DNA of 56,209 bases from Candidatus Omnitrophota bacterium (GTDB taxonomy: Bacteria > Omnitrophota > Gorgyraeia > Duberdicusellales > 4484-171), in contig JBDRIY010000090.1 in NCBI GenBank assembly GCA_043815445.1, forward strand, positions 1-56,209, given 5' to 3'. A model generated the notes under the pieces. That model searched no databases and was not told the origin of the DNA. It worked only from the letters and a program-made list of their open reading frames with translations. Below, piece after piece: positions 19,593-46,867 of the stretch. Both the position numbers and the translations under genes were made by a program. The stretch's first letter is position 1. Each line of letters begins with the position of its first letter.

Positions 19593-19611
19593 AAAAGATT
19601 CGTATAATGAT

Positions 19612-27768: not shown

Positions 27769-27777
27769 ACACAAATT

Positions 27778-27830
27778 AAAGTTCACTAAATAAGCAATGC
27801 TTATTTAGTGAACTTTAGCTGTTTTTTTTT
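27778..27830 (+). terminator. intrinsic terminator
   Basis: 18-bp stem aaagttcactaaataagc / gcttatttagtgaacttt, followed by a T9 run. Confidence 0.75.
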
Positions 27831-27841: not shown

Positions 27842-27869
27842 TTGACTAATATGGGCAATATAGTAAAAT
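27842..27869 (+). promoter_or_regulatory. sigma70-like promoter candidate for the PKS cluster
   Basis: TTGACT (27842-27847), 16-nt spacer, TAAAAT (27864-27869). Confidence 0.45.
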
Positions 27870-27886
27870 TTTACTAATTAAATTTT

Positions 27887-28009
27887 ACCCCGTTAGAGAT
27901 GATAAGGTCTAATCATGTTTTTATAGTATTTCAATAAAGGATAAAGAGGCTTTTTAGAAAAACAAAGCTAATTTACGGCTATCTAAAGATAGTCTATCTC
28001 TAACGGGGT
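27887..28009 (+). promoter_or_regulatory. structured 5' leader, or MITE-like insert, bounded by a perfect 14-bp inverted repeat
   Basis: accccgttagagat (27887-27900) and atctctaacggggt (27996-28009). The 3' arm covers the only purine-rich SD-like GGGG, 6 nt before the ATG at 28015. Confidence 0.4.
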
Positions 28010-28014: not shown

Positions 28015-29481
28015 ATGGATATAAGAAATTTACTTATTCAGCATTTCCAAAATTGCCCGCGAAAACCAGCTATTATCTTTGGAGATAGGGTAATTGATTT
28101 TTTGGAGATAAAAGATTCTTCTTTTAGGCTTGCTAATTATCTGTTAAAAGCCGGCTTCAGTGAATCAGATAAGGCAGCTTTATATCTTTCTAATACTCCT
28201 GACGCGGTAACAAGCTTTTTAGGAGTTTTTAGCGCTGGCTTAACAGTTGTGCCTTTAGACTTTATGCTTACCCAGGAAGAGATAATTCATTTTATAAATC
28301 ATAGCGAAGCCAAAGTTTTAATTACCCAGCCTAAAAAAGGAGTGGATTTAGAAAAGATTAAAAATAGCTGTCTTGGTTTAAAAGAGATAATAGTCTGCAA
28401 AGAAGAAGTTAGCCCGTTTTCTTATTGGGGCAAAGTTTTGGAGAGCTCTTGTATTGATAATCCTAATTCAGAAATAAACAGCGGCAGCCTTTCATCTATT
28501 TTTTATACTTCCGGCACAACCGGCCATCCTAAAGGGGTTATGCTTGATTATAAACATTTAAGTAATCCCGTTAAAACAATAGGCCATTTTTTGGGGGTAA
28601 ACGAGAACGACGTGTTTTTATGCGGAGGGGTTCCTTTTTCACATTTCGGCGGGTTAGACTATATTTTGCTAATGATTTATTTCGCGTCAACTATGATTTT
28701 GATGGAAAGGTTTCATCCTTTAGAGTTTTTAAAAAGTATAGAACGCGGCAAGGTTACTATATTCTGCATTGTTCCGGCCATGTATATAGCAATTTTATCG
28801 TTAAAAGAGTATGACAAGCTTGACCTCTCGTCTTTGCGTTACGCGGTTGTATTTGGCGCGCCTTCTTCGCCGATTTTGTTAAAAAGGTTTAATAAGGCTT
28901 GCCCTAACGCTAAACTTTCAAACGGCTGGGGTTTAACTGAGACAGCGGCTCCAAACTGCATGCTGCCGCCTGAGCTTGATAAAATAGAAAGTATTGGAAA
29001 GTTTGCTCCGGGAATGGAAGCTAAAATAGTTGAAGGTGAGCTTTGGGTTAAGGGTGAAGCGGTTATGCGCGGTTATTATAAGGAAGAAGATTTAACAAAA
29101 GAAGTTATAACCGAAGACGGCTGGTTTAAGACCGGAGATATTGCGCGGCGCGATGAACAAGGGCTTTTTTATATTATAGGAAGAAAAAAAGATATGATTA
29201 AAGTTGCCGGTGAGATAGTTTTTCCGGCTGAAGTTGAAGAAAAAATTCAACGCCATCCTCAAATTGAAGAAGCCGCGGTTATAGGAGTAGCAGACCCGTT
29301 AAGAGGAGAGGTTCCTAAAGTTTTTATCGTAACCAATGATAAAGGGCGCCTTGAAATTCAGGCGTTAAAAGAGTTTTTAAAAGAGCATATAGCTCATTTT
29401 AAAATTCCTCATCATTTTGAATTTGTGGAAAGCTTGCCTAAAAACAGGACTGGGAAAGTAGATAAGAGTAAGTTAAAGTAA
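28015..29481 (+). CDS. AMP-dependent synthetase/ligase (acyl- or aryl-CoA/ACP ligase)
   Basis: YTSGTTGHPKGV, GWGLTET, GDIARRDEQGLFYIIGRKKDMIKVAGE, PKNRTGKVDK. Confidence 0.85.
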   Translation: MDIRNLLIQHFQNCPRKPAIIFGDRVIDFLEIKDSSFRLANYLLKAGFSESDKAALYLSNTPDAVTSFLGVFSAGLTVVPLDFMLTQEEIIHFINHSEAKVLITQPKKGVDLEKIKNSCLGLKEIIVCKEEVSPFSYWGKVLESSCIDNPNSEINSGSLSSIFYTSGTTGHPKGVMLDYKHLSNPVKTIGHFLGVNENDVFLCGGVPFSHFGGLDYILLMIYFASTMILMERFHPLEFLKSIERGKVTIFCIVPAMYIAILSLKEYDKLDLSSLRYAVVFGAPSSPILLKRFNKACPNAKLSNGWGLTETAAPNCMLPPELDKIESIGKFAPGMEAKIVEGELWVKGEAVMRGYYKEEDLTKEVITEDGWFKTGDIARRDEQGLFYIIGRKKDMIKVAGEIVFPAEVEEKIQRHPQIEEAAVIGVADPLRGEVPKVFIVTNDKGRLEIQALKEFLKEHIAHFKIPHHFEFVESLPKNRTGKVDKSKLK

Positions 29482-29515
29482 GCGGCGGGATAAATAAAGT
29501 TTAAATTACTAAAGA

Positions 29516-29642
29516 TTTTAAATTCGAAATCCGAAACAAATTTGAAATACGAAATTCTAAACGGATATTAAATTCATTAAAATTTCGAATTTTCCCCATT
29601 TTCTTCATTTGTTTCGAATTTCGGATTTCGTGCTTCGGATTT
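29516..29642. repeat. long intergenic hairpin, AAATCCGAAA word family (copy 3)
   Basis: Left arm aaattcgaaatccgaaacaaatttgaaatacgaaatt. Right arm tttcgaatttcggatttcgtgcttcggattt. Confidence 0.9.
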
Positions 29643-29707
29643 ACTGTTCTTTAGGCCAATTAGAATAATTAAACAGTGATAAGTATATTAAATAAGGAGC
29701 GTTAACT

Positions 29708-30472
29708 ATGATGCAGAAAGATATTCATTTACATCCCCAGGGACTTTTGGAATCTTTACAGTTTAGGCAAGGGGATTTTGGAGAAGTTGCTTTAATCAGC
29801 GGACAGCAGCATAGGGCAAAAATGTGCCTTCCTAAATTAGAAAATTGTGTGAAAAACTTTACGTTTTTAGGTTATACTTTTTGGACTGGTTTCTACAAAG
29901 GGAAAAAAGTTACTGTTGGCAACGGCGGGTTTTTCGCTCCGGATTCAGCTTTTGTTACTGAGATGCTTTGTGTTGGAGGGATTAATACTTTTATCAGGCT
30001 TGGCTCTTGCGGAGCTTTAAAGGAAGAGATAAATGTGGGCGATTATATTTTGGCTACTGATGTTATAAGGGGCGATGGCGCTACTCGTTATTATGTGGAG
30101 GATGATTATATATCTAAGGTAAGTGAAGATTTAACAGTTTCTTTAGGAAAGGCTTTTAGCAACGCGGGTAAAGTTTATAAAGGGGGTGTTTGGACAACGG
30201 ATGCTTTGTTTAAGGAGACTAAAGATATAGTAAATTCTTTTATTCAAAGAGGCGCGATAGGGGTTGATATGGTAACTTCGCCATTTGTAACAATAGCTAA
30301 CCTTTATAACAAAAAAGTAGCGGCGATATTAGCGGTTTCAGATAATCTTATTACTGGAGCCTTAGGTTTTTCAGATTACCGTTTTTTTGAAGCTGAAATG
30401 AAAATGACTGACATAGCTTTTAGTGTTGTTGAAAAATTACAGCCGCGGAAAATAACAGAAAACGTGGAGTAG
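29708..30472 (+). CDS. PNP_UDP_1-family nucleoside phosphorylase/hydrolase
   Basis: GNGGFFAPDSA, IRLGSCGAL, GVDMVTS and VSDNL are typical of the uridine/purine phosphorylase fold. Confidence 0.6.
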   Translation: MMQKDIHLHPQGLLESLQFRQGDFGEVALISGQQHRAKMCLPKLENCVKNFTFLGYTFWTGFYKGKKVTVGNGGFFAPDSAFVTEMLCVGGINTFIRLGSCGALKEEINVGDYILATDVIRGDGATRYYVEDDYISKVSEDLTVSLGKAFSNAGKVYKGGVWTTDALFKETKDIVNSFIQRGAIGVDMVTSPFVTIANLYNKKVAAILAVSDNLITGALGFSDYRFFEAEMKMTDIAFSVVEKLQPRKITENVE

Positions 30473-30476
30473 AAAA

Positions 30477-30746
30477 ATGAATATTGAATGGAATCAGGAC
30501 GCGAAAAGTAGTTTTGATAAGGTGATTAGTAATCTTCCTCAGTTTCATAGAAGTATTGCTGAAAGGTTAGTCAAAGAAAAGGCCCGGGAACTTGCTAATC
30601 AGAGGAATTCTCAAATTGTAGAGAATCAAGATGTAGTTCGCGCTTTTTTCCAGGAAGTTCCTCCGGCTTTTAAAGATATGATGAAGAGGCTATTTAGCCA
30701 GTTAAATATAGATTGTTGTAGTTATGCCGATGAATCGGGAAATTAA
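30477..30746 (+). CDS. small protein, PCP_red-like (tentative)
   Basis: 89 aa. WNQDAKSSFDKVISNLPQFHRSIAERLVKEKARELA resembles the PF08369 pattern. Confidence 0.3.
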   Translation: MNIEWNQDAKSSFDKVISNLPQFHRSIAERLVKEKARELANQRNSQIVENQDVVRAFFQEVPPAFKDMMKRLFSQLNIDCCSYADESGN

Positions 30747-31170
30747 GCAAAGTATTGCTATAAATGCTGATTACCTAAAGATTTTTGAAGAATTGCTTTT
30801 CTGGGGCCAAAGCCAATGGTGGCCGAAGAATTCTTTGATGCGGTTTGAGAACCTTACTAAGGATATAAGAGAAAAAACTTTATATTTACAAAAAATTAAG
30901 CTCCCTTTCGGGCCTAAATGGCATAGCGTAAACGAAACAATAGACAGAAATAAATTATATATAAAAAGAGTTTTTCTTGACGGGCTGTTTGAGGGCTGTG
31001 AAGAGCTATCGGTTTTAAAAGGCAAAGGTACCCCAGAAGTTGTTTATTGCTTTAATTATAAAGTAAAGGGCTTTTTTAACAAATTAATCTGGAAAATATT
31101 GTTTAAGAAACTGCACATAAAAAATATAAATTTGGTTTTACAATCCTTAAAAAACTATTTAGAAAATTAA
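30730..31170 (+). CDS. SRPBCC-superfamily protein (tentative)
   Basis: IAINADYLKIFEELLFWGQSQWWP resembles the SRPBCC N-terminal signature. About 146 aa. Confidence 0.45.
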   Translation: MNREIKQSIAINADYLKIFEELLFWGQSQWWPKNSLMRFENLTKDIREKTLYLQKIKLPFGPKWHSVNETIDRNKLYIKRVFLDGLFEGCEELSVLKGKGTPEVVYCFNYKVKGFFNKLIWKILFKKLHIKNINLVLQSLKNYLEN

Positions 31171-31229
31171 ACGTTGATTATTTTCGCGTTAATCCGCGTT
31201 GATATCCGCGTTTATCCGTGTATCCGAAC
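31171..31229. repeat. ATCCGCGT words (reverse complement of ACGCGGAT), tandem and degenerate
   Basis: atccgcgt at 31192-31199 and 31204-31211. Degenerate atccgtgt and atccgaac follow. Confidence 0.8.
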
Positions 31230-31243
31230 AAGGTGAGGATAAA

Positions 31244-32236
31244 ATGAAAACAGCAGTAATAGGGTGCGGAGCAATTGGCGGGTTATTTCTAGGTAAGCTT
31301 TCAGAATGTCCCTGTGATCTTATTGGCGTAGTTAGGGGTTACCAAAAAAAGTCTCTGGAAGAAGAAGGGCTTATTATTGAAACCGCGGGCAAGAGTGTTA
31401 ACTATCAAATAAAAATTGATACCAAGCTTAACGAAAATCCGGACGTGGCAATTTTTACGGTAAAGATAAATGACTTAGAGCAGGCGGTAAGGGATAATAT
31501 TGAAAATTTAAAAGATACGATTATAGTAAGTACCCAGAATGGGATAAAAGCTGAACGTATTCTTAGCAAGTATTTTGGTAAGGATAAAATTATTACTGGA
31601 ATAGTAATGTTTGGAGCGACTTTTTACGCGCCGAATAAAGTTGTGCATAATTTTGGCAAGGATTTAATCTTAGGTAATATTTTCGGAGCAGTTTCTGATA
31701 GCCTTGAACAGGTTCAAAATCTTCTTAGTGGTTCTTTTGAAATTAAGATTTCAAACAATATAAAGGGCGCGAAGTATCTTAAACTATTTATTAACCTTAA
31801 TAATTGTATTCCTGCTGTTTTAGGCTTATCTATGCAGGAAACTTTTGCCGACTTGGATTGCGCCCGGCTGGCTATACGGTTAAACAGAGAAGCCTATGCT
31901 ATAGCTAAAAATAGCGGCATTGAATTAGAAAGTTTGCCTTCTTATCCTAAACAAAAAATAGAAGGGTTGGCTTCAATAGGCTTAGAATATGCCGCGGAAT
32001 TATTTTCTAAGTTAATGATATCTTTAAGCAAAGAACCGCTGGACGGTTCAATACTACAAAGCATAAAACGTTCAAGGAAATCAGAAATTGATTATATAAA
32101 TGGTGAGATTGTTGAGTTAGCTAAGGAAAGCGGGTTTGACGCTTCTTTGAATGAAAAAATCGTTGAGCTTGTCCATAGGGTAGAAGATTCAGGGAAGTTT
32201 TTAGAAAAAAAAGATTTATTGGAACAGTTTAGGTGA
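31244..32236 (+). CDS. ApbA/PanE-family (2-dehydropantoate reductase-like) NAD(P)H oxidoreductase
   Basis: Start trimmed to MKTAVIGCGAIGG, which sits behind AGGTGAGG. The length and C-terminal helical domain fit the family. Confidence 0.7.
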   Translation: MKTAVIGCGAIGGLFLGKLSECPCDLIGVVRGYQKKSLEEEGLIIETAGKSVNYQIKIDTKLNENPDVAIFTVKINDLEQAVRDNIENLKDTIIVSTQNGIKAERILSKYFGKDKIITGIVMFGATFYAPNKVVHNFGKDLILGNIFGAVSDSLEQVQNLLSGSFEIKISNNIKGAKYLKLFINLNNCIPAVLGLSMQETFADLDCARLAIRLNREAYAIAKNSGIELESLPSYPKQKIEGLASIGLEYAAELFSKLMISLSKEPLDGSILQSIKRSRKSEIDYINGEIVELAKESGFDASLNEKIVELVHRVEDSGKFLEKKDLLEQFR

Positions 32237-32304
32237 TAGACAATATAATAAATATCGTATATCAAAAACCAGAATCGAGAAACGAGAATCAAGGAGTGAG
32301 AAAT

Positions 32305-32892
32305 ATGCCAAGAGTGAAATTTCCTAAGTTAAAGATGACGGTTATTGAGCAGAAAGGGTATTGTTATCATAATTATAAGGTAGGAGATGAGTTTATATTG
32401 GATGATTTTACTCATCCGCCTAAACATTTCTGCAGTGGGCTTATTAAGTCCGCGTTCCCTTGTCTTTATGCTTTAACTTTTGGGGCCGAGTTTAAGTTTA
32501 TGGATAATACCAAATCAATTAAGACAACTTGTCCTGATGACGGCAAATTAGCTTTTAAAATTGAAGTTCTTGATGATCAAGGCAAAGTTATAAATAAGCC
32601 TCAAACTGAAAAACCTAAACCTAAACCTAAAACTCTTGAAATAGAGGTTGATCAGGTGTGCGGGCATTGTTTTTTTGGTTATAAAAAAGGGGATAAATTT
32701 GTAGTTGAAGGTTTAAAAACACCAGCTGGGTTTTGCGGAGCGGCATATAGTATTTTATTTCCGGTTTTATTTGCTTTAAATTTCGGAGCTGAGTTTTCTT
32801 TTGAGGATAATCCAATTTGTAAAACCAATACAACCTGTCCTGATGGAGGAAATATAAAGTTTAAAGTTAGGAGAATTAAATGCGAAGAGTAG
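32305..32892 (+). CDS. tandem-duplicated TIGR04076-like Cys-rich protein
   Basis: Start trimmed to MPRVKF behind AAGGAG. Two homologous halves (..GDEF..FCSG..ALTFGAEFKF..TTCPDDGKLAFKIEV / ..GDKF..FCGA..ALNFGAEFSF..TTCPDGGNIKFKVRR) are joined by the linker PKPKPK. Confidence 0.5.
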   Translation: MPRVKFPKLKMTVIEQKGYCYHNYKVGDEFILDDFTHPPKHFCSGLIKSAFPCLYALTFGAEFKFMDNTKSIKTTCPDDGKLAFKIEVLDDQGKVINKPQTEKPKPKPKTLEIEVDQVCGHCFFGYKKGDKFVVEGLKTPAGFCGAAYSILFPVLFALNFGAEFSFEDNPICKTNTTCPDGGNIKFKVRRIKCEE

Positions 32893-34133
32893 TAATCACA
32901 GGCATTGGAGTTATCTGCGCCGCCGGAGAAGACAAAGAAACTTTTTATACGAATTTGATTGAAGGAAAACCTTGTGTTGAGAGAGTTGAGAATTTTGACG
33001 TGAGCTTATTTGTTTCTAAAATAGCTTCGCAGGATTTGAATTTTGACCCTTTAAATTTCGGCATAAAAGAACATAAGCGTATGGACCGTTATGTTCAATT
33101 TGGAGTTGCCGCTGCCAATCGAGCGGTTAAAGACGCTAAGCTTGATTTTACGAAGTTGGATTCAAGAAGATGCGGAGTTGTTCTTGCTAACGCGATTTGC
33201 GGAACACGGTTTATGGAAGAAGAATTTTTAATGGTTACTGATTGGGGTAAAAAACCTATAGATCCCCGAAAAGCCCGGCCTTATCTTTATGACGCGGCTA
33301 TGTTTAATTCTCCCAGCGCTGAAATAGGAGGAATTCATAAGACAAAAGGTATTAATTGCACGATTTCAACCGGATGCACTGCCGGAACCGACTCTCTAGG
33401 TTTTTCTTTTGAACTTATTCGCGAGGGACGACAGGATGTAGTTATTGCCGGAGCAAGCGAGGCTCCGATTACGCCGATTACTTTTGGGGCTTTTGACGTG
33501 GTTAATGTTTTAGCCAAGAATAATGATGAACCGCATAAAGCTAGCCGGCCTTTTGATAATAAACGCAATGGGTTTGTAATCTCAGAGGCTGCCGGGGTTG
33601 TTATCCTGGAAGAGTTTGAACATGCTAAAAAAAGAGGCGCTCATATTTATGCTGAGATATTGGGTTATGGAACAAGTTGTAACGCTTACCATATGACTGA
33701 TTTACCCGCGGATGGAGAGCCTATGGCAATTTGTATGGAAGAAGCAATAAAAGAAGCCGGTATAAAAAAGGAAGAGATAGACTACATTAACGCCCATGGT
33801 TCATCTACTCGTCAGAATGATGCTTTTGAAACTGATGCTTATAAAAAGGTGTTTGGCGATTTAGCTTATAAGGTTCCTATAAGTTCAATTAAATCTATGA
33901 TTGGCCACCCTCTGGCGGCAGCCAATGCTGTTGAAAGCGTTTTATGCTGTATGATATTTGAAAAAGGGTATCTTCCACCGACTATAAATCAGGAGGAGCC
34001 GGATCCCAAATGTGATTTAGATTATATCCCTAATAAAAAAAGGGAAATAATGCCTGAATATATATTAAAAACCAGCAGTGGATTTTCAGGAATTCACTCT
34101 TCTATTGTGTTTAAGCGTTATGGACGCGGATAA
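32880..34133 (+). CDS. type II PKS ketosynthase alpha (KS-alpha)
   Basis: ISTGCTAGTDSLG (active-site Cys), YINAHGSSTRQND, SIKSMIGHPLAAA. Confidence 0.88.
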   Translation: MRRVVITGIGVICAAGEDKETFYTNLIEGKPCVERVENFDVSLFVSKIASQDLNFDPLNFGIKEHKRMDRYVQFGVAAANRAVKDAKLDFTKLDSRRCGVVLANAICGTRFMEEEFLMVTDWGKKPIDPRKARPYLYDAAMFNSPSAEIGGIHKTKGINCTISTGCTAGTDSLGFSFELIREGRQDVVIAGASEAPITPITFGAFDVVNVLAKNNDEPHKASRPFDNKRNGFVISEAAGVVILEEFEHAKKRGAHIYAEILGYGTSCNAYHMTDLPADGEPMAICMEEAIKEAGIKKEEIDYINAHGSSTRQNDAFETDAYKKVFGDLAYKVPISSIKSMIGHPLAAANAVESVLCCMIFEKGYLPPTINQEEPDPKCDLDYIPNKKREIMPEYILKTSSGFSGIHSSIVFKRYGRG

Positions 34134-34141
34134 ACGCGGAT
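34124..34141. repeat. ACGCGGAT word x2 spanning the KS-alpha stop codon
   Basis: acgcggat at 34124-34131 and 34134-34141. The TAA stop lies at 34131-34133. Confidence 0.8.
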
Positions 34142-34163
34142 ATTTTAAGAAAAGGAGTTTATA

Positions 34164-35393
34164 GTGGAAAGGGTAGCAATAACTGGTGTAGGAGTAGTTT
34201 CGCCTTGCGGGCTTAAAAAAGAAACTTTTTGGGCAAATCTTAAAAGAGGCGAATCTTTTATCGATGAGATTAAGAGGTTTGACGCTTCGCTTTACTCCTG
34301 TCGTATTGCCGGACAGGTTCATGAGCTGGATCATTATACTCATCTTTCAGGAAGATTGATAAAAAAAATAGATGTATTTTCTCATATGGCTTTAGTTGCC
34401 AGCGAACAAGCGCTTAGGGATGCGAATGTTGATTTAGAAAATATTGATAAAAAAAGAGTAGGCGTTTTTATGGGTAATGCTTTAGGAGGTTGGCTTTTTG
34501 CCGAGACTGAATTAAGAGATATGTATATAGAAGGCAGGGACGGTGTTTCTCCCTATATGGCTTCAGCCTGGTTTCCGGCAGCTCCTCAAGGCCAGGTTAC
34601 TATATATTATGGTTTTAAAGGTTATAGTAAAACAGTAGTGGCTGATAAAGCTTCTTCAGCTTTATCTTTGTGGTATGGAGCAAAAACAGTTGCTCAGGAT
34701 AAGAATGATTTTGTAGTGGCTGGAGGAATGGAAGCACCGATTACTCCTTATGCTATGCTTTGCGTGAATACCAGAGGCGGAGCTTCAAAAAATAATCTTA
34801 ATTTTAAAAAGGCTTACCGGCCTTATGACTTGTACCGTGATGGATTTGTTCCGGCAGAGGGCGCGGGAATGGTGATTTTAGAGAAAGAGTCTCAAGCCCG
34901 GAAAAGAGGAGTAAATATTTATGGGTTTATAAAAGGAATTGGTTTTTCTTCGGACGGTTACGATTATGCCCGCTACAGCCCGTCAACAGAAAGTTTTGAA
35001 TATGCCATAGAAGAATGTTTGAAAGATGCCGGATGGAACAAGGAGGATATTGATTATATTTGTTTAGACGCTGAAGCCAGCACGATGGGGGATTATTTGG
35101 AAACTCAAACTTTAAAAAATGTTTTTGGCGATAATTTAAAAAATATAGCTTTAAGCGCTCCTAAAAGTATGTTTGGAAATTTACTTGGGGCTCAAACCGC
35201 GTTGGATTTGATTGTTACAATTTTTTCTATGAAGAATAACTTAATTCTTCCGACGATTAATCATGAAATGAACGATCCTTATTGTGATTTGGATTATACT
35301 TTTAATAGCCCAAAAGAAAAAGAGGTTAATAAAGCTCTTATTTTAGCCAGGGGCAGAGGCGGAATAAACGTTATTTTGGCAATAGAAAAGTAA
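34164..35393 (+). CDS. type II PKS ketosynthase beta / chain-length factor-like (no active-site Cys)
   Basis: GTG start. KS fold (AITGVGVVSPCG, GGMEAPITP). The Cys position reads VVADKASSA (K162, codon 34647-34649). Both catalytic His positions are also lost. Confidence 0.8.
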   Translation: MERVAITGVGVVSPCGLKKETFWANLKRGESFIDEIKRFDASLYSCRIAGQVHELDHYTHLSGRLIKKIDVFSHMALVASEQALRDANVDLENIDKKRVGVFMGNALGGWLFAETELRDMYIEGRDGVSPYMASAWFPAAPQGQVTIYYGFKGYSKTVVADKASSALSLWYGAKTVAQDKNDFVVAGGMEAPITPYAMLCVNTRGGASKNNLNFKKAYRPYDLYRDGFVPAEGAGMVILEKESQARKRGVNIYGFIKGIGFSSDGYDYARYSPSTESFEYAIEECLKDAGWNKEDIDYICLDAEASTMGDYLETQTLKNVFGDNLKNIALSAPKSMFGNLLGAQTALDLIVTIFSMKNNLILPTINHEMNDPYCDLDYTFNSPKEKEVNKALILARGRGGINVILAIEK

Positions 35394-35431
35394 AAGTATC
35401 ACGTAGCACGTTTTTAGACAAGGAGGGAGAT

Positions 35432-35668
35432 GTGGACCTAAAAGCTGAAGTTTTAGACGTTATCTGTAAAACATTGGATATTAGCGAGGATGAATTAAAA
35501 GACGGGCAAAAACTATATGATTCAATCGGCGTTGATTCAACTGAAATGGTGGAGGTAGTTGTTACTTTGAATAAGCATTTCGGGATTAAAATTGAAACTA
35601 GTGAAATTACTAAGTTTTCTACACCCGAAGAAGTCATCAGCGTCATTGAAAAAAAGAAACAACAATAA
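35432..35668 (+). CDS. acyl carrier protein
   Basis: 78 aa, GTG start behind AAGGAGGG. Phosphopantetheine site GVDSTEMVE. Confidence 0.8.
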   Translation: MDLKAEVLDVICKTLDISEDELKDGQKLYDSIGVDSTEMVEVVVTLNKHFGIKIETSEITKFSTPEEVISVIEKKKQQ

Positions 35669-35670
35669 AA

Positions 35671-35693
35671 AATCGGACGTCTGACGTCCGATT
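35671..35693 (+). terminator. hairpin after the ACP gene (attenuator or terminator candidate)
   Basis: aatcggacgt ctg acgtccgatt: 10-bp stem, short T run. Confidence 0.4.
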
Positions 35694-35706
35694 TGGAAGG
35701 CAGGGT

Positions 35707-36504
35707 ATGGAGATAATTGATTTAAGTTTAGCGATTGATGATACCGCTTTTGAAGTTCATAATTTGGAAATTGAGCGCGTATCGCATAAAGAGGGCGTAG
35801 AAAAGCTTAATAAAGTTTTAATGAGCAAAACTTCTGAAGGTAAGAAAGAGTATCTTGCTGGAAAAAGGATAATAAAAAAAGAAGATTTACCTGATGAGGA
35901 ATTTTTATCTTTAGAAATTGTTCATTCTCCAGTCCATATTGGAACCCACCTAGATTATTCTTTTCACTATGGTAGTAAATCCCAGGGAAGGCCTTCAAAA
36001 ACAGCTGATCAAATACCTTTGGAACGGTGCTATCGGGAGGGAGTTAAAATAAATTTAACTCATAAGAGCCCTGAGGAAGTTATTACAGCTGAAGATATAA
36101 AACAAGGCTTAAATAAAATAAATTATAATCTTAAGCCCGAAGACATAGTTCTTTTATGGACTGGGTCAGATAAGCTTTTTGGCCGGCCTGAGTATTTTTC
36201 AGATTATCCAGGGGTTGATATTTCAGCCATAGATTATTTGCTGGATAAAGAAATTAAGATTTTTGGAGTAGATACTATGGGTATAGACCGGCCTTATAAG
36301 TTTATGATGGCTGAGTTTTTAAAAACAAAAAATACCAAAGTGCTTTGGCCCGCTCATTTTTACGGAAGAAAAAGGGAATTCATACATATAGAAAGGTTGG
36401 CCAATTTAGAAAGTTTGCCCGATTATGGTTTTAAAATAGCCTGTTTTCCGGTGAAGATAAGGAAAACTGGGGCGGCTTGGGCTAGAGTTGTGGGGATGGT
36501 GTAA
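35707..36504 (+). CDS. cyclase-family protein (PF04199-like; kynurenine formamidase / polyketide cyclase fold)
   Basis: HSPVHIGTHLDYSFH matches the HxGTHxD metal motif. About 265 aa. Confidence 0.7.
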   Translation: MEIIDLSLAIDDTAFEVHNLEIERVSHKEGVEKLNKVLMSKTSEGKKEYLAGKRIIKKEDLPDEEFLSLEIVHSPVHIGTHLDYSFHYGSKSQGRPSKTADQIPLERCYREGVKINLTHKSPEEVITAEDIKQGLNKINYNLKPEDIVLLWTGSDKLFGRPEYFSDYPGVDISAIDYLLDKEIKIFGVDTMGIDRPYKFMMAEFLKTKNTKVLWPAHFYGRKREFIHIERLANLESLPDYGFKIACFPVKIRKTGAAWARVVGMV

Positions 36505-36512
36505 AGGAAAAT

Positions 36513-36591
36513 CAATTAGCAATTTTCAATTAGCATTTAGCAGTTTAAAATGAAAGAGAAGAAATATAAAGAAATTGATAACTGCTAATTG
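36513..36591. repeat. intergenic hairpin, CAATTAGCA / TGCTAATTG words
   Basis: caattagca x2 plus tttagcag on the left, ctgctaattg on the right. Confidence 0.8.
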
Positions 36592-36627
36592 TATATTTTG
36601 CATTGCGAGCAAAGCGGGGAGGAGGAT

Positions 36628-37053
36628 ATGGCGCACACTGTAAATTCAATAGTTATCAATGCTTCTTACGGCAAGGTATTTGATATGAGCAATGATATTT
36701 CTTTGTGGAAGGAGTTTTTTGAGGAATATACAGGGTCGGATGTTTTAGAAAAAATTGATAATAAAATTATTTTTAAACTTACTCATCAAAACGGAAATAG
36801 CTGGAAGTCTTACCGTTTACTTTTTAAAGAAGATAAGTTTGCTTATGCTTCAAGGATAGAACCGATGTTCCCTTTTGAATATATGAAAATTATCTGGCTT
36901 TATAGAGAAGTTGAAGCCGGAATTGAAATGACCTGGATTCAGGACTTTAAAATGGACAAAAACGCTAAATTTAACGATACTCAAGTAGAAGAGATGATAA
37001 ATAAACACTCTAAAGATAACCTAATAAGATTCAAAGAAATAATCGAAAAATAG
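36628..37053 (+). CDS. TcmN/WhiE-ORFVI-type polyketide aromatase/cyclase (SRPBCC)
   Basis: Start trimmed to MAHTVNS behind GGAGGAGG. HTVNSIVINASYGKVFDMSNDISLWKEFF.., FPFEYMKIIWLYREVEAGIEMTWIQDFKMD, INKHSKDNLIRFKEIIE parallel mono-domain ARO/CYC sequences as I recall them. Confidence 0.75.
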   Translation: MAHTVNSIVINASYGKVFDMSNDISLWKEFFEEYTGSDVLEKIDNKIIFKLTHQNGNSWKSYRLLFKEDKFAYASRIEPMFPFEYMKIIWLYREVEAGIEMTWIQDFKMDKNAKFNDTQVEEMINKHSKDNLIRFKEIIEK

Positions 37054-37068
37054 CAGCGCAACACCTGC

Positions 37069-37134
37069 CTGATTACAACCCCGGAGGTTGTAATCTGGCG
37101 CAATTACAATTACAACCTCCGGGGTTGTAATCAG
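37069..37134. repeat. perfect 26-bp inverted repeat with nested palindromes
   Basis: ctgattacaaccccggaggttgtaat (37069-37094) is the exact reverse complement of 37109-37134. Each arm is itself attacaacc/ggttgtaat. Confidence 0.9.
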
Positions 37135-37139
37135 GGATT

Positions 37140-38276
37140 ATGGTTAGGAAGAATTTTTTTGTTTTTTGCTTGATGTTTTTTGCTCTTTCTTTTGGGGTGG
37201 CGGCTATGGCTGCTTTGGTGCCTTCTCTGGCAGTTTCTTTTAAAGTGCCGCTTCATTCCGCTCAAAGGCTTACTTGGCTTTATATGCTTCCTTATGGATT
37301 GTTTGCCCTTGTCTGGGCGCCTTTAACCAGAGTGGTTAAAGTTAAAAAACTGCTTTTTTTTGCTGCTTTGGGGTATTGTTTTTCCACGCTTTTATTTAGT
37401 CTTTCTTCTAATATAAATCAGGCTTATCTTTTTAGGTTTCTTATGGGAATTTTTGGCTGTGGTTTTGTCCCCGTAGTTTTGATTACTATAGGTAAATCTG
37501 TTTCTTCGGAGAAAAAAGCAAAATATATAGGTATATTTTTCGCAGTTTCTTATATTTCTACCTTGATAAGTGTTTTTTTAAGCGGTTTTGTTAATTGGCG
37601 GATAATTTATTTTATACCAGCCTTGCTAAGCGCGGTTGTAATTATTTTTATTTCAAGCCATCTTCATGATTTCGATTTTAGAATGGAAAAATTTAAGTTA
37701 AGCTATTTTGATACTTTTAAAGATAAGCAGGCAGCTAGATTTTTTCTAGTAATTATGTTAGCTAGTTTTCTTTATCACAGTCTTCAACAGCGCTTAGGCG
37801 TATATCTGAGCTCTGAATACAGCCTTTCTCAAATGGTTATAAGCTCTATTCTTACAGTAGGCGCTTTTTACGCTATAAGTTTTGAGTTTATGGGAGGCTT
37901 TTTAAGCAAACGTTTCGGTAATATTGGAATTAGCCGTAGTGGTTTTATTATGATGAGTATATTTATTTTATTTTTATTATTTATTAAAAATTATCCTATG
38001 ATATTTTGGGTTGTTGGTTTATGGGGAGCGGGCTGGGCTTTAACTCATATTGGGCTTTCTTCTCACTTGGCTGATTTTCCCGATAAAATTTTGTGCGATG
38101 CCTCGGGCTTAAACAGCTCTTTACGATTTAGCTTTGGCGGCTTAGGGTCTTTATGCGGAGGGTTTATTGTTTCATTAGTAGGGTTTAAAGCACATTTTTT
38201 AATTGTAGGTATATCTATATTCTTGTTGGGATTTTATTTGAATAGGATAATTACTGTTAAGGATCCTGGATACTAG
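37140..38276 (+). CDS. MFS-type transporter
   Basis: 378 aa, about 12 hydrophobic segments arranged 6+6 with a central loop. Confidence 0.7.
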   Translation: MVRKNFFVFCLMFFALSFGVAAMAALVPSLAVSFKVPLHSAQRLTWLYMLPYGLFALVWAPLTRVVKVKKLLFFAALGYCFSTLLFSLSSNINQAYLFRFLMGIFGCGFVPVVLITIGKSVSSEKKAKYIGIFFAVSYISTLISVFLSGFVNWRIIYFIPALLSAVVIIFISSHLHDFDFRMEKFKLSYFDTFKDKQAARFFLVIMLASFLYHSLQQRLGVYLSSEYSLSQMVISSILTVGAFYAISFEFMGGFLSKRFGNIGISRSGFIMMSIFILFLLFIKNYPMIFWVVGLWGAGWALTHIGLSSHLADFPDKILCDASGLNSSLRFSFGGLGSLCGGFIVSLVGFKAHFLIVGISIFLLGFYLNRIITVKDPGY

Positions 38277-38328
38277 ACCCTGGATTCTTGTGAAAAAACT
38301 AATATTGAAAATCAAGGAGAGGAGAGGT

Positions 38329-39096
38329 ATGAGTAATTTAGAAGGAAAAGTTTGTGTTGTCACCGGCGCCAGCGGAGGGATTGGAAAAGTTATCGTTGAA
38401 AAGCTTGCTAAAGAAGGGATGAATTTAGTTCTTGCCGCGCGCAGGCAGGAGGTTTTAGAAGAGATAAAAAACAGCTTGTCGGAAAAGGATAAGGTTTTAT
38501 GTGTTAAATGTGATGTCACTAAACAGGCGGATTTGGAAAATTTAGTTAATAAAACTTTAGAGAAGTTTAAGAAAATAGATATTTTGATAAATGGAGCCGG
38601 AGTTTCCAGCCAGCATCCGTTTTGGAGCCAGCCTTTGGAAGACATTGAAAAAATTATGTATACTAATTATTACAGTTATGTGATGCTTAGCCGTTTGGTT
38701 GTTAACCCTATGAAAGAACAGGGAGGCGGCCATATTATTAATATTACCAGCGGTTCAGTTATGGTTGACCCGCCCCCACGCAATTTCATAGTTTATACCT
38801 CGTTAAAGGTAGCTTTACGGGCATTTGCCAAAGGGCTTTTCTGGGAAATGAGAGATTTCGGAATAAAGGTAACTTCAATTTTCCCCGGTGTGACAAGAAC
38901 TCCTTTAACCGGAAAGTTAAAAGAAGTATCTGAAAAAGGCGACAGGCTTATGGAACCCGAACCAATAGCAGACACAGTCCTGTTTGCCCTAAATCAGCCA
39001 AAAAACACAAATCCCTTAGAGTTAGCAGTAATAAATCAACAAACCCCCTGGACTAAGCCGGTTATTCCCTTTAAGCAGAATCATCCGGAGGAGTGA
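38329..39096 (+). CDS. short-chain dehydrogenase/reductase (candidate PKS ketoreductase)
   Basis: Start trimmed to MSNLEGKVCVVTGASGGIGK. NGAG. YTSLK (YxxxK). Confidence 0.85.
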   Translation: MSNLEGKVCVVTGASGGIGKVIVEKLAKEGMNLVLAARRQEVLEEIKNSLSEKDKVLCVKCDVTKQADLENLVNKTLEKFKKIDILINGAGVSSQHPFWSQPLEDIEKIMYTNYYSYVMLSRLVVNPMKEQGGGHIINITSGSVMVDPPPRNFIVYTSLKVALRAFAKGLFWEMRDFGIKVTSIFPGVTRTPLTGKLKEVSEKGDRLMEPEPIADTVLFALNQPKNTNPLELAVINQQTPWTKPVIPFKQNHPEE

Positions 39097-39104: not shown

Positions 39105-39230
39105 TATACCTGATAAGGAGCAAATATAGAATTTTTACACCTCATAGGGTGTAGTCACATTTAATTTACACCTTAAAGGGTATAAAATTTATAAAAACTT
39201 ATTGAAATTATACCCGATATGTGTTATATT
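39105..39230 (+). promoter_or_regulatory. hipBST promoter with four TAYACC-N6-GGTRTA operator-like palindromes
   Basis: Strong sites 39136-39153 (TACACC tcatag GGTGTA) and 39167-39184 (TACACC ttaaag GGTATA). Degenerate sites 39105-39122 and 39209-39226. TTGAAA (39202-39207), 17 nt, TATATT (39225-39230). Confidence 0.55.
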
Positions 39231-39239
39231 TGAATTGTT

Positions 39240-39509
39240 ATGAAACAAGAAAGTTTACGTCAATATATGTTAGGTATTTCTTCTCAAGTGAAGAGTTTGC
39301 GAAGAAAGAACGGCTTGACTCAGGTTGAATTTGCTAAGCGAGCAGGAGTTGGTTTGCGTTTTTTAAGGGAGTTTGAGCAAGGAAAGACAACTGTCCGAAT
39401 GGATAAACTTATGCAGGTTTTAGATTTCTTGGGATATTGTTTAGAGCTAAAGAGAAGGGGCGAACTGCAGTATATGCAGTATACTGCAATAAATACCGAA
39501 CGTCAGTGA
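39240..39509 (+). CDS. hipB: XRE-family HTH protein, HipB-like
   Basis: LRRKNGLTQVEFAKRAGVGLRFLREFEQGK. First gene of a three-gene hip module. Confidence 0.75.
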   Translation: MKQESLRQYMLGISSQVKSLRRKNGLTQVEFAKRAGVGLRFLREFEQGKTTVRMDKLMQVLDFLGYCLELKRRGELQYMQYTAINTERQ

Positions 39510-39529
39510 AGATTTTTTTATAGATTTTT

Positions 39530-39853
39530 ATGGAGATTTCAAGAAAGGCAAAAGTTTTTTATAAAGATGAGTTAGCGGGGCGTATAATTGAAACTCCGGA
39601 TGGATATACTTTTCAATATGATCCGGAATTTTTAAAGAAGAATATTTTTATTTCAATATCTTTACCTCCTAGAGAAGAGCTGTATCATTCAAAGGAATTA
39701 TTTACTTTTTTTAAAGGGCTTCTTCCCGAAGGCTGGTATTTAGATATTGTATGCGCGGTACAGAAGGTTGATAGTAAAGATTCTTTTGGTGTATTATTAG
39801 CCTGCGCCAGCGGTGATACCATTGGCGCGGTTACTGTAGTGAGAGAGGAATAA
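39530..39853 (+). CDS. hipS: HipA N-terminal-subdomain-only protein, HipS-like
   Basis: 107 aa. VFYKDELAGRI..GYTFQYD..ISLPP..FFKGLLPEGW..GDTIGAVTV is the HipA N-terminal (couple_hipA) pattern. Confidence 0.75.
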   Translation: MEISRKAKVFYKDELAGRIIETPDGYTFQYDPEFLKKNIFISISLPPREELYHSKELFTFFKGLLPEGWYLDIVCAVQKVDSKDSFGVLLACASGDTIGAVTVVREE

Positions 39854-39858
39854 TAAAA

Positions 39859-40719
39859 ATGGACGAGAAATTTCTTAAAGAGATGTTTAATTCTTCTAAG
39901 CTTCCCAGCGTAGATTTTAATTTAGGAGATGTATCTCAAGAAGCACAAAAGCTTACCGGAAAACTTTCCATTTCCGGAGTTCAGCCCAAGTTGTCTGTTA
40001 AACTAGACAAGAAGCAAAATATTTTGATTCCTGTGACTAAAGGCGGAGAGTATATTTTAAAACCGCAAATTTTTACTTTTCCTAATATTCCCGAAAATGA
40101 GCAATGTTGTATGGATATTGCCGAAGAATTAGGCGTAGATATCCCGCCACATTGTTTAATTGCCTTAAAAGACGGTAGTTTTGCTTATTTGGTTAAGAGG
40201 TTTGACCGAGAGAAGAATATAAAATTCCATCAGGAAAGTTTCGCCCAAATTCTTCAACAACCAGATAAATATAAAGGTTCAGTAGAACAAATAGGCAGAA
40301 AGCTTGAAACAATGCCTTCAGTTCCGGGCTATGATATTCAATTATTTTTTGAAAGAGTTGTTTTTAACTTTATTATTGGTAACGGCGACGCTCATTTAAA
40401 AAATTATTCAGTTTCTTATAAAGATAAGGATATTCGTTTATCGCCTGCTTACGATATTGTATGCTCAAAATTAGTTATTCCTGATGAGGAAGATTCAGCT
40501 ATAAATATTAACGGAAAAAAGAACAAACTACAAAGAGAAGATTTTGACAGCTTAGCCGAATACCTAAACATTCCCGCGGAAGTTCGCTATGAAAAATTTG
40601 AGAATAAATTTGATACTATGAAAAAAATAATAGAGGCTTCTAAGATTAATAAAGAAAAACAACAGCGGTTTATTGAAATAGTAAAAGAAAGATTAAGCCG
40701 TTTAAGATTGGCAGAATAG
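39859..40719 (+). CDS. hipT: HipA-like Ser/Thr kinase lacking the N-terminal subdomain, HipT-like toxin
   Basis: Gly-rich loop LSISGVQPKLSV. Catalytic GNGDAHLKNYS. SPAYDIV. Confidence 0.8.
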   Translation: MDEKFLKEMFNSSKLPSVDFNLGDVSQEAQKLTGKLSISGVQPKLSVKLDKKQNILIPVTKGGEYILKPQIFTFPNIPENEQCCMDIAEELGVDIPPHCLIALKDGSFAYLVKRFDREKNIKFHQESFAQILQQPDKYKGSVEQIGRKLETMPSVPGYDIQLFFERVVFNFIIGNGDAHLKNYSVSYKDKDIRLSPAYDIVCSKLVIPDEEDSAININGKKNKLQREDFDSLAEYLNIPAEVRYEKFENKFDTMKKIIEASKINKEKQQRFIEIVKERLSRLRLAE

Positions 40720-42267: not shown

Positions 42268-42287
42268 AGATACGTGATACGTTGAAG

Positions 42288-42376
42288 GGTTGCGTAGCTG
42301 GAAACGGGTGTCGTCAATCGTTGAACGTATTTTCAAACGCAACCGTAAGACGGTTTACGTTTCGAGCTACGCAACC
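42288..42376. repeat. intergenic hairpin with a 19-bp stem (1 mismatch)
   Basis: ggttgcgtagctggaaacg (42288-42306) pairs with cgtttcgagctacgcaacc (42358-42376). Confidence 0.85.
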
Positions 42377-42392
42377 GAATAACGAATTATTT

Positions 42393-43283: not shown

Positions 43284-43313
43284 TTATTATCGGTGCCGGC
43301 TGGAATGGTTTTA

Positions 43314-43355
43314 AAAAGCCAGAAAAAGTTCTTTCACTAGACGCAATTTTTGCCT
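43314..43355 (+). repeat. dispersed repeat family A, copy 2
   Basis: aaaagccagaaaaagttctttcactagacgcaatttttgcct. See 25379-25419. Confidence 0.85.
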
Positions 43356-43364
43356 GTGGCACAT

Positions 43365-43444
43365 AAAAAAATACCTAAAAGCACATAACTCGTCTCGGCT
43401 TGGCCGAGACTCAAACAAATGTGCTTTTTTAACGGTATTTTTTT
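43365..43444. repeat. 80-nt three-tier hairpin
   Basis: aaaaaaatacc/ggtattttttt (11 bp), aaaagcacat/atgtgctttt (10 bp), gtctcggc/gccgagac (8 bp). Confidence 0.85.
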
Positions 43445-43527
43445 ATTAAAAATTGCTATATCGTTCAAGAACCTTTTCCGTCTTTTTAAAACGTTTGAGG
43501 CAGGAATGTAGAGATGTTTTAAACAAT

Positions 43528-45197: not shown

Positions 45198-45236
45198 AGT
45201 TACAAAACAGTTGTCAACTGTTTTGTAACTTTAAGG
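45192..45236. repeat. 45-nt near-perfect palindrome over the MtnA-like stop codon
   Basis: ccttaaagttacaaaacagttg (45192-45213), t, caactgttttgtaactttaagg (45215-45236). The arms are exact reverse complements. Confidence 0.9.
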
Positions 45237-45261
45237 GGGGTGAGAAAGTGAGAAGAGAGTA

Positions 45262-46760: not shown

Positions 46761-46767
46761 AAATACG

Positions 46768-46849
46768 CATAGGGCATAGTGCATGGAGCATAGGGCAAGA
46801 ATGTGAATTTTTTTATTTTTCGCTATGCCCTTTGCGCTTTGCTTGCTTG
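46768..46849. repeat. intergenic hairpin, CATRGNG 7-mer x4 plus complement
   Basis: cataggg catagtg catggag cataggg ... cgctatgccctttgcgctttgc. Confidence 0.8.
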
Positions 46850-46867
46850 TTTAAGAAAAGGAGATAA

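Follow-up and report, generated by a model that had tools for sequence, protein, structure and literature searches.

A 56,209-nucleotide stretch of DNA from an uncultivated, anaerobic Candidatus Omnitrophota bacterium (contig JBDRIY010000090.1; hereafter the window) contains a genuine aromatic, or type II, polyketide synthase (PKS) gene cluster. The cluster runs from 28015 to 48304 on the + strand, and its genes predict, with a probability that we put at roughly 0.78, a vertically inherited, operator-controlled operon that would make an aromatic polyketide without molecular oxygen. A genuine aromatic polyketide pathway had already been proposed in a preliminary description of the same DNA, and it is now supported by the position of one ketosynthase (KS) in a phylogenetic tree, by the full-length match of an aromatase/cyclase (ARO/CYC) to solved structures and by the lack of lipid-pathway genes.

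The preliminary description had placed 13 co-directional, tightly packed open reading frames (ORFs) at 28015-39096. All of these are present at their coordinates on the + strand; profile scans with Pfam and NCBIfam returned the same families, and the peptide motifs quoted for the KS, acyl carrier protein (ACP) and cyclase all occur in the translations. The view that the cluster is complete-looking within these limits did not survive comparison with related loci, which we collected by a motif scan with the cyclase over one genome per GTDB species (55 loci, referred to here by L numbers). The conserved unit continues to 48304, past an inserted HipBST module, and is thus nearly twice the length first described. 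In the relatives, seven further genes directly adjoin the 3′ side of the short-chain dehydrogenase/reductase (SDR) gene: those for a B12-binding radical S-adenosylmethionine (SAM) enzyme, an Amidohydro_2 enzyme, (in some loci) a class IV aminotransferase, an IF-2B isomerase, a small IF-2B-like protein, an aldolase fused to an SCP2 domain and an aldehyde dehydrogenase (Aldedh). Their counterparts in the window lie at 40807-48304, split from the SDR gene by the HTH/HipA module. The 5′ boundary of the unit is marked by the terminator hairpin of the upstream tRNA/rRNA methyltransferase gene (27776-27818, + strand, 20-bp stem) and the downstream edge by the housekeeping gene for RlmN at 48289. As first reported, neither a malonyl-CoA:ACP transacylase nor a phosphopantetheinyl transferase (PPTase) domain was found in any of the window ORFs scanned.

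The gene at 32880-34133 encodes KS-alpha, identified by profiles, motifs and tree position, with its Cys-His-His triad intact and with the motifs ISTGCTAGTDSLG, YINAHGSSTRQND and SIKSMIGHPL. Its top matches in the PDB were AntD (369 bits, 46.9% identity), the actinorhodin KS (353 bits) and Bacillus FabF (347 bits). In alignments, KS-alpha, AntD and the actinorhodin KS have in common a five-residue insertion, a GC..G.D active-site motif and CNAYHMTDLPADG, none of which is seen in FabF, and the C-terminal SSGFSGIHS of KS-alpha is identical to that of AntD. In a neighbour-joining tree of 43 sequences (410 columns, 200 bootstraps), built with three named references and without canonical chain-length factors (CLFs) or aryl-polyene KSs, the Omnitrophota KS-alpha is sister to Photorhabdus AntD with 97% bootstrap support, the actinorhodin KS-alpha comes next and the FabF sequences form a group of their own (88%). 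The initial impression that the wording of KS-alpha fits a type II PKS better than FabF is borne out by this placement. KS-alpha also failed to pass the FabF equivalog model TIGR03150 (452 against a cutoff of 493.75) and, unlike the FabF of housekeeping type II fatty acid synthesis, it is encoded beside KS-beta and two cyclases.

KS-beta (34164-35393) is, as had been described, a KS paralog that lacks the active-site Cys: Lys takes the place of Cys, while the first and second His are replaced by Asp and Asn, respectively. Gly-Cys becomes Asp-Lys in the window and Asp-Arg/Lys in five relatives, Asp-Arg being the usual form among relatives, and the catalytic triad is absent from KS-beta in every relative examined. 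Judged by sequence, this protein is a CLF of an 'Asp-Arg/Lys' type. A Gln in place of this Cys, the mark of a decarboxylative 'chain initiation factor', is a defining feature of the canonical CLFs of actinobacteria alone. KS-beta belongs to a large metagenomic family with an 'Asp-Arg' signature, for which about 25 single-domain matches were usable because the search of representatives was swamped by giant type I PKSs with scores summed over domains. Members of this family adjoin KS-alpha together with TcmN-type and/or OxyN-type cyclases in unrelated genomes; one of their clusters also encodes a FAD monooxygenase, a cupin, a PPTase and an O-methyltransferase, and another member, accompanied by a KSIII gene, comes from a 6-Mb genome.

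The remaining core components agree with this assignment. The ACP (35432-35668; PF00550) has, as first noted, the motif GVDSTEMVE, in which DS is the phosphopantetheine site, and the gene at 35707-36504 encodes a PF04199 (OxyN-type) metal-dependent cyclase (98.9 bits) in which the predicted HxGTHxD motif reads HIGTHLD. The parallel with TcmN and WhiE that had been drawn along the length of the mono-domain TcmN-type ARO/CYC (36628-37053) proved accurate: the protein aligns end to end, over residues 2-140, with the TcmN, WhiE and ZhuI ARO/CYC structures (E = 2e-24), and W28, E34, Y35, W65, S67, R69, W95, Q110 and N136 of TcmN are all kept. These residues reportedly have the catalytic roles set out by Ames and co-workers in 2008. 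The PF04199 cyclase occurs in all 55 related loci, and the TcmN-type and OxyN-type genes in 53-55 of the 55. Placement of OxyN in this cyclase family is in line with PMC7693217. With its core genes in the order KS-CLF-ACP-OxyN-type-TcmN-type, the cluster matches what Hillenmeyer et al. and Ishida et al. regard as the 'ancestral' architecture of such synthases (PMC7693217).

It is conceivable that the KS pair is instead a fatty-acid-type KS/CLF heterodimer, as in anammox ladderane lipids, and that the product is an unusual lipid rather than an aromatic compound. KS/CLF-like heterodimers do occur in a lipid pathway of the Planctomycetes-Verrucomicrobia-Chlamydiae (PVC) superphylum together with B12-radical-SAM genes (bioRxiv 10.64898/2026.05.19.726425), and antiSMASH 'ladderane' calls have been reported in metagenome-assembled genomes (MAGs) of Omnitrophota (PMC9902471); in addition, KS-beta finds its best score against FabF, and genes for an MMPL exporter and a LolA-like protein are present in one relative, L060. 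The anammox pair amxFabF2/amxFabFmut (9S5H) resembles the present one in its PVC membership, in combining an active KS with a triad-less paralog and in having ACP and B12-radical-SAM genes near, but it serves a fatty-acid pathway that has no aromatase or cyclase. KS-alpha matches the two 9S5H chains at 269 and 220 bits, far more weakly than it does AntD (369 bits) or the actinorhodin KS, and it branches with the latter two. Profile scans detected no fatty-acid dehydratase or enoyl reductase in the cluster, whereas the TcmN-type aromatase, its active site intact, and the OxyN-type cyclase are kept in nearly every locus. We consider a lipid product very improbable. Indeed, none of the three outcomes that the preliminary description had named as decisive against an aromatic pathway was found, whether a KS lying within FabF, an ARO/CYC failing to match its models or identity with a known lipid pathway.

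The species-level genomes that carry the cluster number at least 55. Most of the 55 loci are labelled Omnitrophota, some being automatically labelled Planctomycetia, Planctomycetales or Victivallales, and the complete chromosomes among them measure 1.28, 1.52 and 1.82 Mb. Among the best 120 of 8000 candidates, the named KS-alpha homologues (75-89% identity) all come from Candidatus Omnitrophota/Omnitrophica MAGs; the same core and radical SAM gene are also found in a MAG labelled Deltaproteobacteria (L066). All 23 long loci, those represented by 19 kb or more, encode KS-alpha, KS-beta, ACP, cyclase and ARO/CYC; the radical SAM enzyme, decarboxylase, SDR and ApbA-family reductase are found in 22 of them. 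Sequence identity is higher in the PKS core than in the housekeeping genes on its flanks. In L026, identity to the window is 81% for KS-alpha, 74% for the cyclase and 75% for the radical SAM enzyme, whereas Era and RlmN stand at 52% and 51%, respectively; in L053 it is 84% for KS-alpha against 57% for TrmA. Families that overlap this lineage (e.g. QZM4-1-127) have been predicted to be anaerobic acetogens or syntrophs in a study that leaves polyketides unmentioned (Seymour et al.; PMC10066038).

The cluster has been inherited vertically, since the same TrmA/Era...RlmN neighbourhood recurs in several loci of divergent Omnitrophota and its G+C content equals that of the rest of the window. The absence of a very recent transfer, which had been argued from genomic word repeats inside the cluster, is thus upheld on the better grounds of conserved locus and G+C; the repeats themselves are clear at 29.5, 36.5 and 37.1 kb and amount at 31.2 and 34.13 kb only to the short shared word CGCGGAT.

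The gene set has been kept through at least four gene orders. The window represents arrangement A: ligase, nucleoside phosphorylase, PCP_red-like protein, (orf148), ApbA, TIGR04076, KS-alpha, KS-beta, ACP, cyclase, ARO/CYC, major facilitator superfamily (MFS) transporter, SDR, radical SAM enzyme, decarboxylase, aminotransferase, IF-2B isomerase, small IF-2B-like protein, aldolase and Aldedh. Arrangement B (L017) reads PCP_red-like protein, ApbA, TIGR04076, KS-alpha, KS-beta, radical SAM enzyme, ACP, cyclase, ARO/CYC, SDR, decarboxylase, phosphorylase, IF-2B isomerase, aldolase, Aldedh and ligase; in arrangement C (L035, L037, L040 and L041) the isomerase/aldolase/dehydrogenase block stands upstream of the PKS genes. 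In L060, where KS-beta is only 53% identical, the MMPL exporter is an addition, and two genes for AFOR tungsten aldehyde oxidoreductases are present with no Aldedh seen. Nearly all genes of the window lie tightly packed on one strand, and adjacency alone is weak evidence in compact co-directional genomes, where the genes beyond the minimal PKS might be mere neighbours. That idea is scarcely credible in view of the retention of the same set through these rearrangements, the presence of AFOR in place of the dehydrogenase in L060 and an operator, described below, that also marks unlinked sub-operons. The AFOR genes of L060 suggest, too, that the dehydrogenase step is needed.

The single promoter-like site that had been noted ahead of the ORFs is a sigma-70-type promoter, TTGACT-16-TAAAAT (27842-27869, + strand), the best-scoring site, situated just 3′ of the terminator; the same -35/-10 layout is kept 5′ of the first cluster gene in related loci. 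A palindromic operator, ATAGTAAAATTTTACTA (27860-27888, no strand assigned), overlaps the -10 hexamer and includes the exact 12-nt core GTAAAATTTTAC (27863-27874), and a second, degenerate copy follows 14 bp downstream (27877-27888), a tandem copy being frequent in the relatives. Promoter and palindrome are the only conserved part of the leader across loci. The exact core occurs once in the window. Related loci totalling 838,589 nt contain it 27 times, and in 26 cases it stands no more than 350 nt upstream of the gene that opens the cluster in the arrangement concerned. The operator, which overlaps or sits 3′ of the -10 hexamer, stands ahead of the first gene in every arrangement (seen in L001, L003, L005-L059 and L070-L189). 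At least 120 metagenome contigs contain the exact 18-mer, and in 67 of the 120 listed a cluster gene lies downstream, namely PCP_red-like/ApbA, ligase or aldolase. Where the genes of the nucleoside-to-acid branch described below are unlinked from the PKS the operator is kept, as in operator-ligase-phosphorylase-IF-2B on contigs of 54-60% G+C and in operator-aldolase-ligase. In three contigs (L088:1639-2512, L135:2054-5767 and L168:8241-9132) it precedes a xanthine-dehydrogenase-family molybdoenzyme operon with FAD, 2Fe-2S and molybdenum cofactor (MoCo) subunits and with MobA-like and XdhC genes near. For the large subunit the nearest match is 4-hydroxybenzoyl-CoA reductase alpha, with a score (737 bits) that falls below the cutoff of 994, and this enzyme may be a member of the regulon that acts on an aryl-CoA or a purine.

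Candidates for the regulator were set aside: the HTH gene of the window is part of the HipBST insert, and two small ORFs, divergent and next to the operator in L088 and L135, show no relation to each other and have no Pfam match. The 5′ leader (27887-28009) is predicted to adopt a stable multi-branch fold (z = -3.8) with a 15-bp closing stem that ends about 6 nt before the ligase start. It was rejected as a riboswitch, having no Rfam match and no conservation in any related locus. One arm of the stem recurs in L037 and may be a mobile hairpin element.

Besides the PKS genes the regulon contains a five-enzyme branch that would lead from a nucleoside to an activated acid. It comprises a DeoD-type nucleoside phosphorylase (PNP_UDP_1; 29708-30472), an MtnA-like, IF-2B-family sugar-1-phosphate isomerase (44298-45197), a class II aldolase with a fused SCP2 lipid-binding domain (45735-46760; the fusion is kept in L001 and L060), an NAD(P)-dependent Aldedh (46868-48304), the last gene before that for RlmN, and an AMP-forming acid ligase (28015-29481), identified by the AMP-binding profile and probably responsible for activation of a starter acid. 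A small 158-aa IF-2B-like protein (45262-45738), the L060 counterpart of which is annotated IF-2B, lies between isomerase and aldolase. The phosphorylase keeps DeoD-like phosphate-binding and Asp motifs, the isomerase its catalytic Cys (TICN) and Asp (GADR), and the aldolase its Zn-His ligands and Glu; presumably the motifs of the first two act as in DeoD and MtnA. The phosphorylase gene is contiguous with those for isomerase, aldolase and dehydrogenase in arrangement B and L060, and the ligase gene is directly 3′ of that for Aldedh in arrangement B. The ligase is closer to aryl- or medium-chain-acid ligases (4CL/FadD/MenE type) than to acetyl-CoA synthetase. Given that Asp-Lys/Arg in KS-beta stands in place of the decarboxylating Gln, a need for a dedicated starter, that is, non-decarboxylative priming, is predicted. 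We tentatively propose the acid derived from this branch as a possible source of the starter unit, which falls short of an even chance.

A different role for the branch has to be weighed, in which the PKS operates as proposed here while the branch salvages 5′-deoxyadenosine or methylthioadenosine through the dihydroxyacetone phosphate (DHAP) shunt, clearing an inhibitory by-product of the radical SAM enzyme, and the ligase loads an unrelated (e.g. aromatic) starter or recycles acetate. The DHAP shunt is reportedly the work of North and co-workers in 2017 and 2020 and of Beaudoin and co-workers in 2018. The branch resembles this pathway, also called 5-deoxyribose salvage (MtnP or Pfs+MtnK, MtnA, Ald2; DrdK/DrdI/DrdA), in its order of phosphorylase, IF-2B isomerase and class II aldolase and in the catalytic residues of these enzymes; moreover, the branch always co-occurs with the radical SAM gene where contigs are long enough, and it evolves faster than the PKS core. 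It differs from the shunt in having a DeoD-type rather than an MtnP-type phosphorylase, an SCP2-fused aldolase and the extra small IF-2B-like protein, and in being tied, within a PKS regulon, to Aldedh or AFOR and to the AMP-ligase. For an enzyme that releases a C2 aldehyde, the conserved lipid-binding domain of the aldolase would be peculiar; as a rule, genes for salvage are not tied to a single radical SAM enzyme; and the ligase is not acetyl-CoA-synthetase-like, its gene lying 3′ of the dehydrogenase gene and sharing the operator even when unlinked from the PKS. We regard a pure salvage function as somewhat unlikely, though hardly less probable than starter supply.

The SCP2 fusion hints at a hydrophobic substrate and so lends something to a third option, in which the radical SAM enzyme attaches a 5′-deoxyadenosyl group to a hydrophobic polyketide intermediate (compare aminofutalosine and adenosylhopane) and the branch trims the ribose, leaving a re-activated two-carbon extension. 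A weak likeness of the phosphorylase to HpnG and of the radical SAM enzyme to HpnJ, together with the aryl- or long-chain type of the ligase, fits such a scheme, but the similarity to the Hpn proteins is far below cutoff and the adenosylating radical SAM enzymes MqnE and HpnH are not known to belong to the B12-binding class B. Trimming of an adenosylated intermediate is quite improbable and is the least likely of the three options for the branch, after starter supply and salvage.

To return to the proposed oxygen-independent pathway, the gene for the radical SAM enzyme itself (40807-42267) lies outside the coordinates first described. Profiles identify B12-binding and radical SAM domains in the enzyme, with BchE as the best family match (185.5 bits over about 430 residues). 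The anaerobic Mg-protoporphyrin monomethyl ester oxidative cyclase BchE is an O2-independent substitute for an oxygenase. The enzyme also resembles HpnJ. It remains far below both the BchE and HpnJ cutoffs (185.5 against 481 for the BchE model TIGR02026) and is found without chlorophyll genes or a tetrapyrrole context. It is 69-82% identical in nearly all relatives, its gene standing between those for KS-beta and ACP in arrangement B, and it probably replaces the missing oxygenases. In contrast to BchE, it is paired with a tandem TIGR04076 protein and a PCP_red-like protein. The latter, 89 residues long (30477-30746), matches DUF2621 above cutoff (32.6 bits) and PCP_red weakly; its gene is the first after the operator in arrangement B, and it is likely a partner of the radical SAM enzyme. 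On a 3.36-Mb contig (L065:7787-12643), genes for a tandem TIGR04076 protein and a DUF2621-like protein flank those for a 639-aa B12-radical-SAM enzyme and a methyltransferase with no PKS present, which suggests that the two small proteins serve the radical SAM enzyme and that the three form a reusable unit.

The Cys/His-rich TIGR04076 protein contains two TIGR04076 repeats and lies at 32305-32892; its longest ORF begins at 32233, and the start is probably 32305. An AlphaFold2 model was of high confidence (pLDDT 93, pTM 0.89), and a fold search of it against the PDB found no neighbour (best E = 0.19, TM < 0.3). Cys20, His22, His37, Cys43 and Cys76 are invariant in repeat 1, as are Cys122 and Cys144 in repeat 2, where Cys178 is present in at least 90% of sequences, a pattern that suggests a metal site. 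The gene for the ApbA/PanE-family NAD(P)H-dependent reductase (31199-32236, by profile) is always directly 5′ of the TIGR04076 and KS-alpha genes, and in L003:8308-9924 the ApbA and tandem TIGR04076 proteins are fused into a single 538-aa protein. The fusion points to a predicted physical or functional partnership between the two.

Most of the accessory set that had been proposed for tailoring is co-conserved with the PKS core in relatives, and that proposal stands except for the nucleoside phosphorylase, which is an enzyme of the branch rather than a stand-alone tailoring activity. The adenylating ligase and the MFS transporter (37140-38276; 18 of the 23 long loci) were both confirmed by profile. 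The supposed SDR ketoreductase (38290-39096) is a classical SDR oxidoreductase, a generic member of the family that cannot be demonstrated to be a polyketide ketoreductase. Its interpretation as an actinorhodin-type C-9 ketoreductase was dropped, its PDB matches being generic dehydrogenases. The second SRPBCC protein of the preliminary description, a 148-aa protein here called orf148 (30724-31170), is possibly of that fold: it has no Pfam match itself, and among its homologues, which occur in a minority of relatives (L005, L030, L054, L058, L063, L066 and L121), a PF10604 match is weak in L066 and unmarked in L063. Profile comparison with the ARO/CYC of the cluster gave a match over a 23-residue N-terminal stretch only, at a probability of 55%. 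The Amidohydro_2 enzyme (42282-43283) falls in the ACMSD/LigW/IDCase decarboxylase branch, and its gene also accompanies distant Asp-Arg CLF systems. A class IV aminotransferase, or ADC-lyase-like protein (43453-44301), is encoded in arrangement A only.

Taken together, these genes would permit the following route. A dimeric regulator would bind the palindrome over the -10 hexamer and switch the whole regulon. The branch would convert a 5′-modified nucleoside (5′-deoxyadenosine or methylthioadenosine, both SAM by-products) to a sugar-1-phosphate, which would pass through a ketose-1-phosphate to DHAP and an aldehyde, the latter being oxidised to an acid for activation by the ligase. KS-alpha/KS-beta would extend the chain with malonyl-ACP, the transacylase and PPTase being supplied by genes outside the cluster. 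Ring closure and aromatisation would be the work of the TcmN-type and OxyN-type cyclases; the Amidohydro_2 enzyme would remove the terminal carboxylate, and ApbA and SDR would reduce carbonyls. C-H oxidation or C-methylation, the tasks of oxygenases and SAM methyltransferases in aerobes, would fall to the B12-radical-SAM enzyme, and the MFS protein would export the product. A bolder form of this scheme, which we offer as speculation and rate as improbable in its entirety, would have the Omnitrophota keeping a near-core, O2-independent pathway whose aromatic polyketide might, for instance, mediate interaction with a host or act as a quinone-like redox factor. The pathway would take its starter from a SAM-derived 5′-deoxynucleoside via the DHAP-shunt-like branch and ligase, use the BchE-like radical SAM enzyme with the new-fold tandem TIGR04076 protein in place of oxygenases, recruit an operator-linked molybdenum hydroxylase/dehydroxylase in some lineages and answer to one operator throughout the regulon.

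Several observations weigh against an operator-controlled aromatic polyketide operon of this kind. KS-alpha passes the FabF subfamily model PRK07314 of NCBIfam (438 against a cutoff of 387); KS-beta scores higher against FabF (258 bits) than against the actinorhodin CLF (206 bits), and the canonical Gln is absent from KS-beta of the window and of the relatives. At this locus the cluster is trimmed in two complete chromosomes from Omnitrophota: L007:1-7300 is without the upstream ligase, phosphorylase, PCP_red-like and ApbA genes, while L036:5855-13948 retains only the C-terminal half of ApbA and has a glycosyltransferase gene at the usual place of the SDR and radical SAM genes. The pathway is thus not universally intact or contiguous. 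The equivalog cutoffs for BchE, MtnA, FucA and DeoD were all missed, so that specific activities are not assignable. Branch genes are only about 36-45% identical between arrangements, far below the PKS core, and since the branch exactly resembles 5′-deoxyadenosine salvage beside a radical SAM enzyme, the link to priming is putative. Finally, no conserved HTH gene adjoins the operator in the related loci, and the regulator was not found.

Among characterised systems, the ant PKS of Photorhabdus laumondii (antA-I), which makes the anthraquinone AQ-256, comes nearest. AntD, the closest solved relative of KS-alpha (AntD/AntE; 6SMO), is likewise non-actinobacterial, and we take the ant cluster to include a CoA-ligase-type gene, a reductase and two cyclases as well. 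Its differences are a PPTase of its own, a chain-shortening lyase and a di-domain TcmN-type aromatase (PMC7693217), whereas the present cluster has the B12-radical-SAM, TIGR04076 and ApbA proteins and the nucleoside branch. In lifestyle, the nearest are the producers of clostrubin (Clostridium) and of dendrubin (Dendrosporobacter), likewise strict anaerobes of low G+C with the 'ancestor 1' architecture of Hillenmeyer et al. Their clusters share with this one KS-CLF-ACP accompanied by TcmN-type and OxyN-type cyclases, with a mono-domain TcmN as in the clostrubin/resistomycin branch (PMC7693217). They are strain-specific to cultured Firmicutes, specify known red pigments and have a different accessory set; the present cluster, by contrast, is kept across a lineage of 1.3-1.8 Mb genomes at a level above housekeeping conservation. 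The existence of an Omnitrophota KS-CLF pair is itself already known. Candidatus Omnitrophica pairs were catalogued, uncharacterised, in a 'previously unexplored, primarily non-actinobacterial clade', and as far as the accessible portion of that catalogue goes, cluster anatomy, conservation, regulation and accessory chemistry are not covered (McBride et al. 2023; PMC10132072). Beyond this mention we found in the literature no description of the full cluster, its lineage-wide conservation, the trio of radical SAM, TIGR04076 and PCP_red-like proteins, the nucleoside-to-acid branch or the operator regulon. To our knowledge, nearly all type II PKSs described so far come from aerobic actinobacteria, as sources of dispensable antibiotics and pigments made with oxygenases. 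Here, a core of the 'ancestral' type has become fixed throughout a lineage of uncultivated anaerobes with small genomes, exceeds ribosome-biogenesis genes in conservation, and appears to be wired to radical-SAM and nucleoside-salvage chemistry under a single recognisable operator. This pattern suggests a physiological rather than an optional role. The gene set offers a defined means of studying the priming and tailoring of aromatic polyketides in the absence of oxygen, the cluster is a concrete data point on early type II PKS evolution, and the operator offers a simple sequence tag for finding the regulon in metagenomes.

The insertion that divides the cluster lies outside the pathway. It has its own promoter-like site (the module as a whole spans 39202-40719, + strand), and its genes encode an 89-aa HTH_3 protein (39240-39509), a 107-aa Couple_hipA/HipA_N-like protein (39530-39853) and a 286-aa HipA_C kinase (39859-40719). 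HipBST modules have the order helix-turn-helix (HTH) protein (HipB), short HipA-N-like protein (HipS) and HipA_C kinase (HipT), and by its gene content 39240-40719 is an insertion of a HipBST-type toxin-antitoxin system. None of the 55 related loci contains it; in these, the SDR and radical SAM genes are direct neighbours.

Intergenic elements in the window consist of short words repeated in tandem (AAATTCCAAAT, AAATCCGAAA and the like) and, after these, inverted copies, and are predicted to form long imperfect hairpins. They lie at 8124-8263, 14462-14607, 18787-18931, 19445-19593, 29503-29643, 36505-36627, 37054-37139, 45198-45261 and 46761-46867 and resemble a genome-specific repetitive extragenic palindromic (REP)-like family; a further copy (46293-46371) falls within the linker that joins the aldolase domain to SCP2. 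Near the start of the window, the 3′ end of tRNA-Leu(GAG) (715-800), CAAGTCCCCTCCCTCGCATTTTT, is repeated exactly 122 nt downstream (904-926), in what looks like a remnant of integration or excision.

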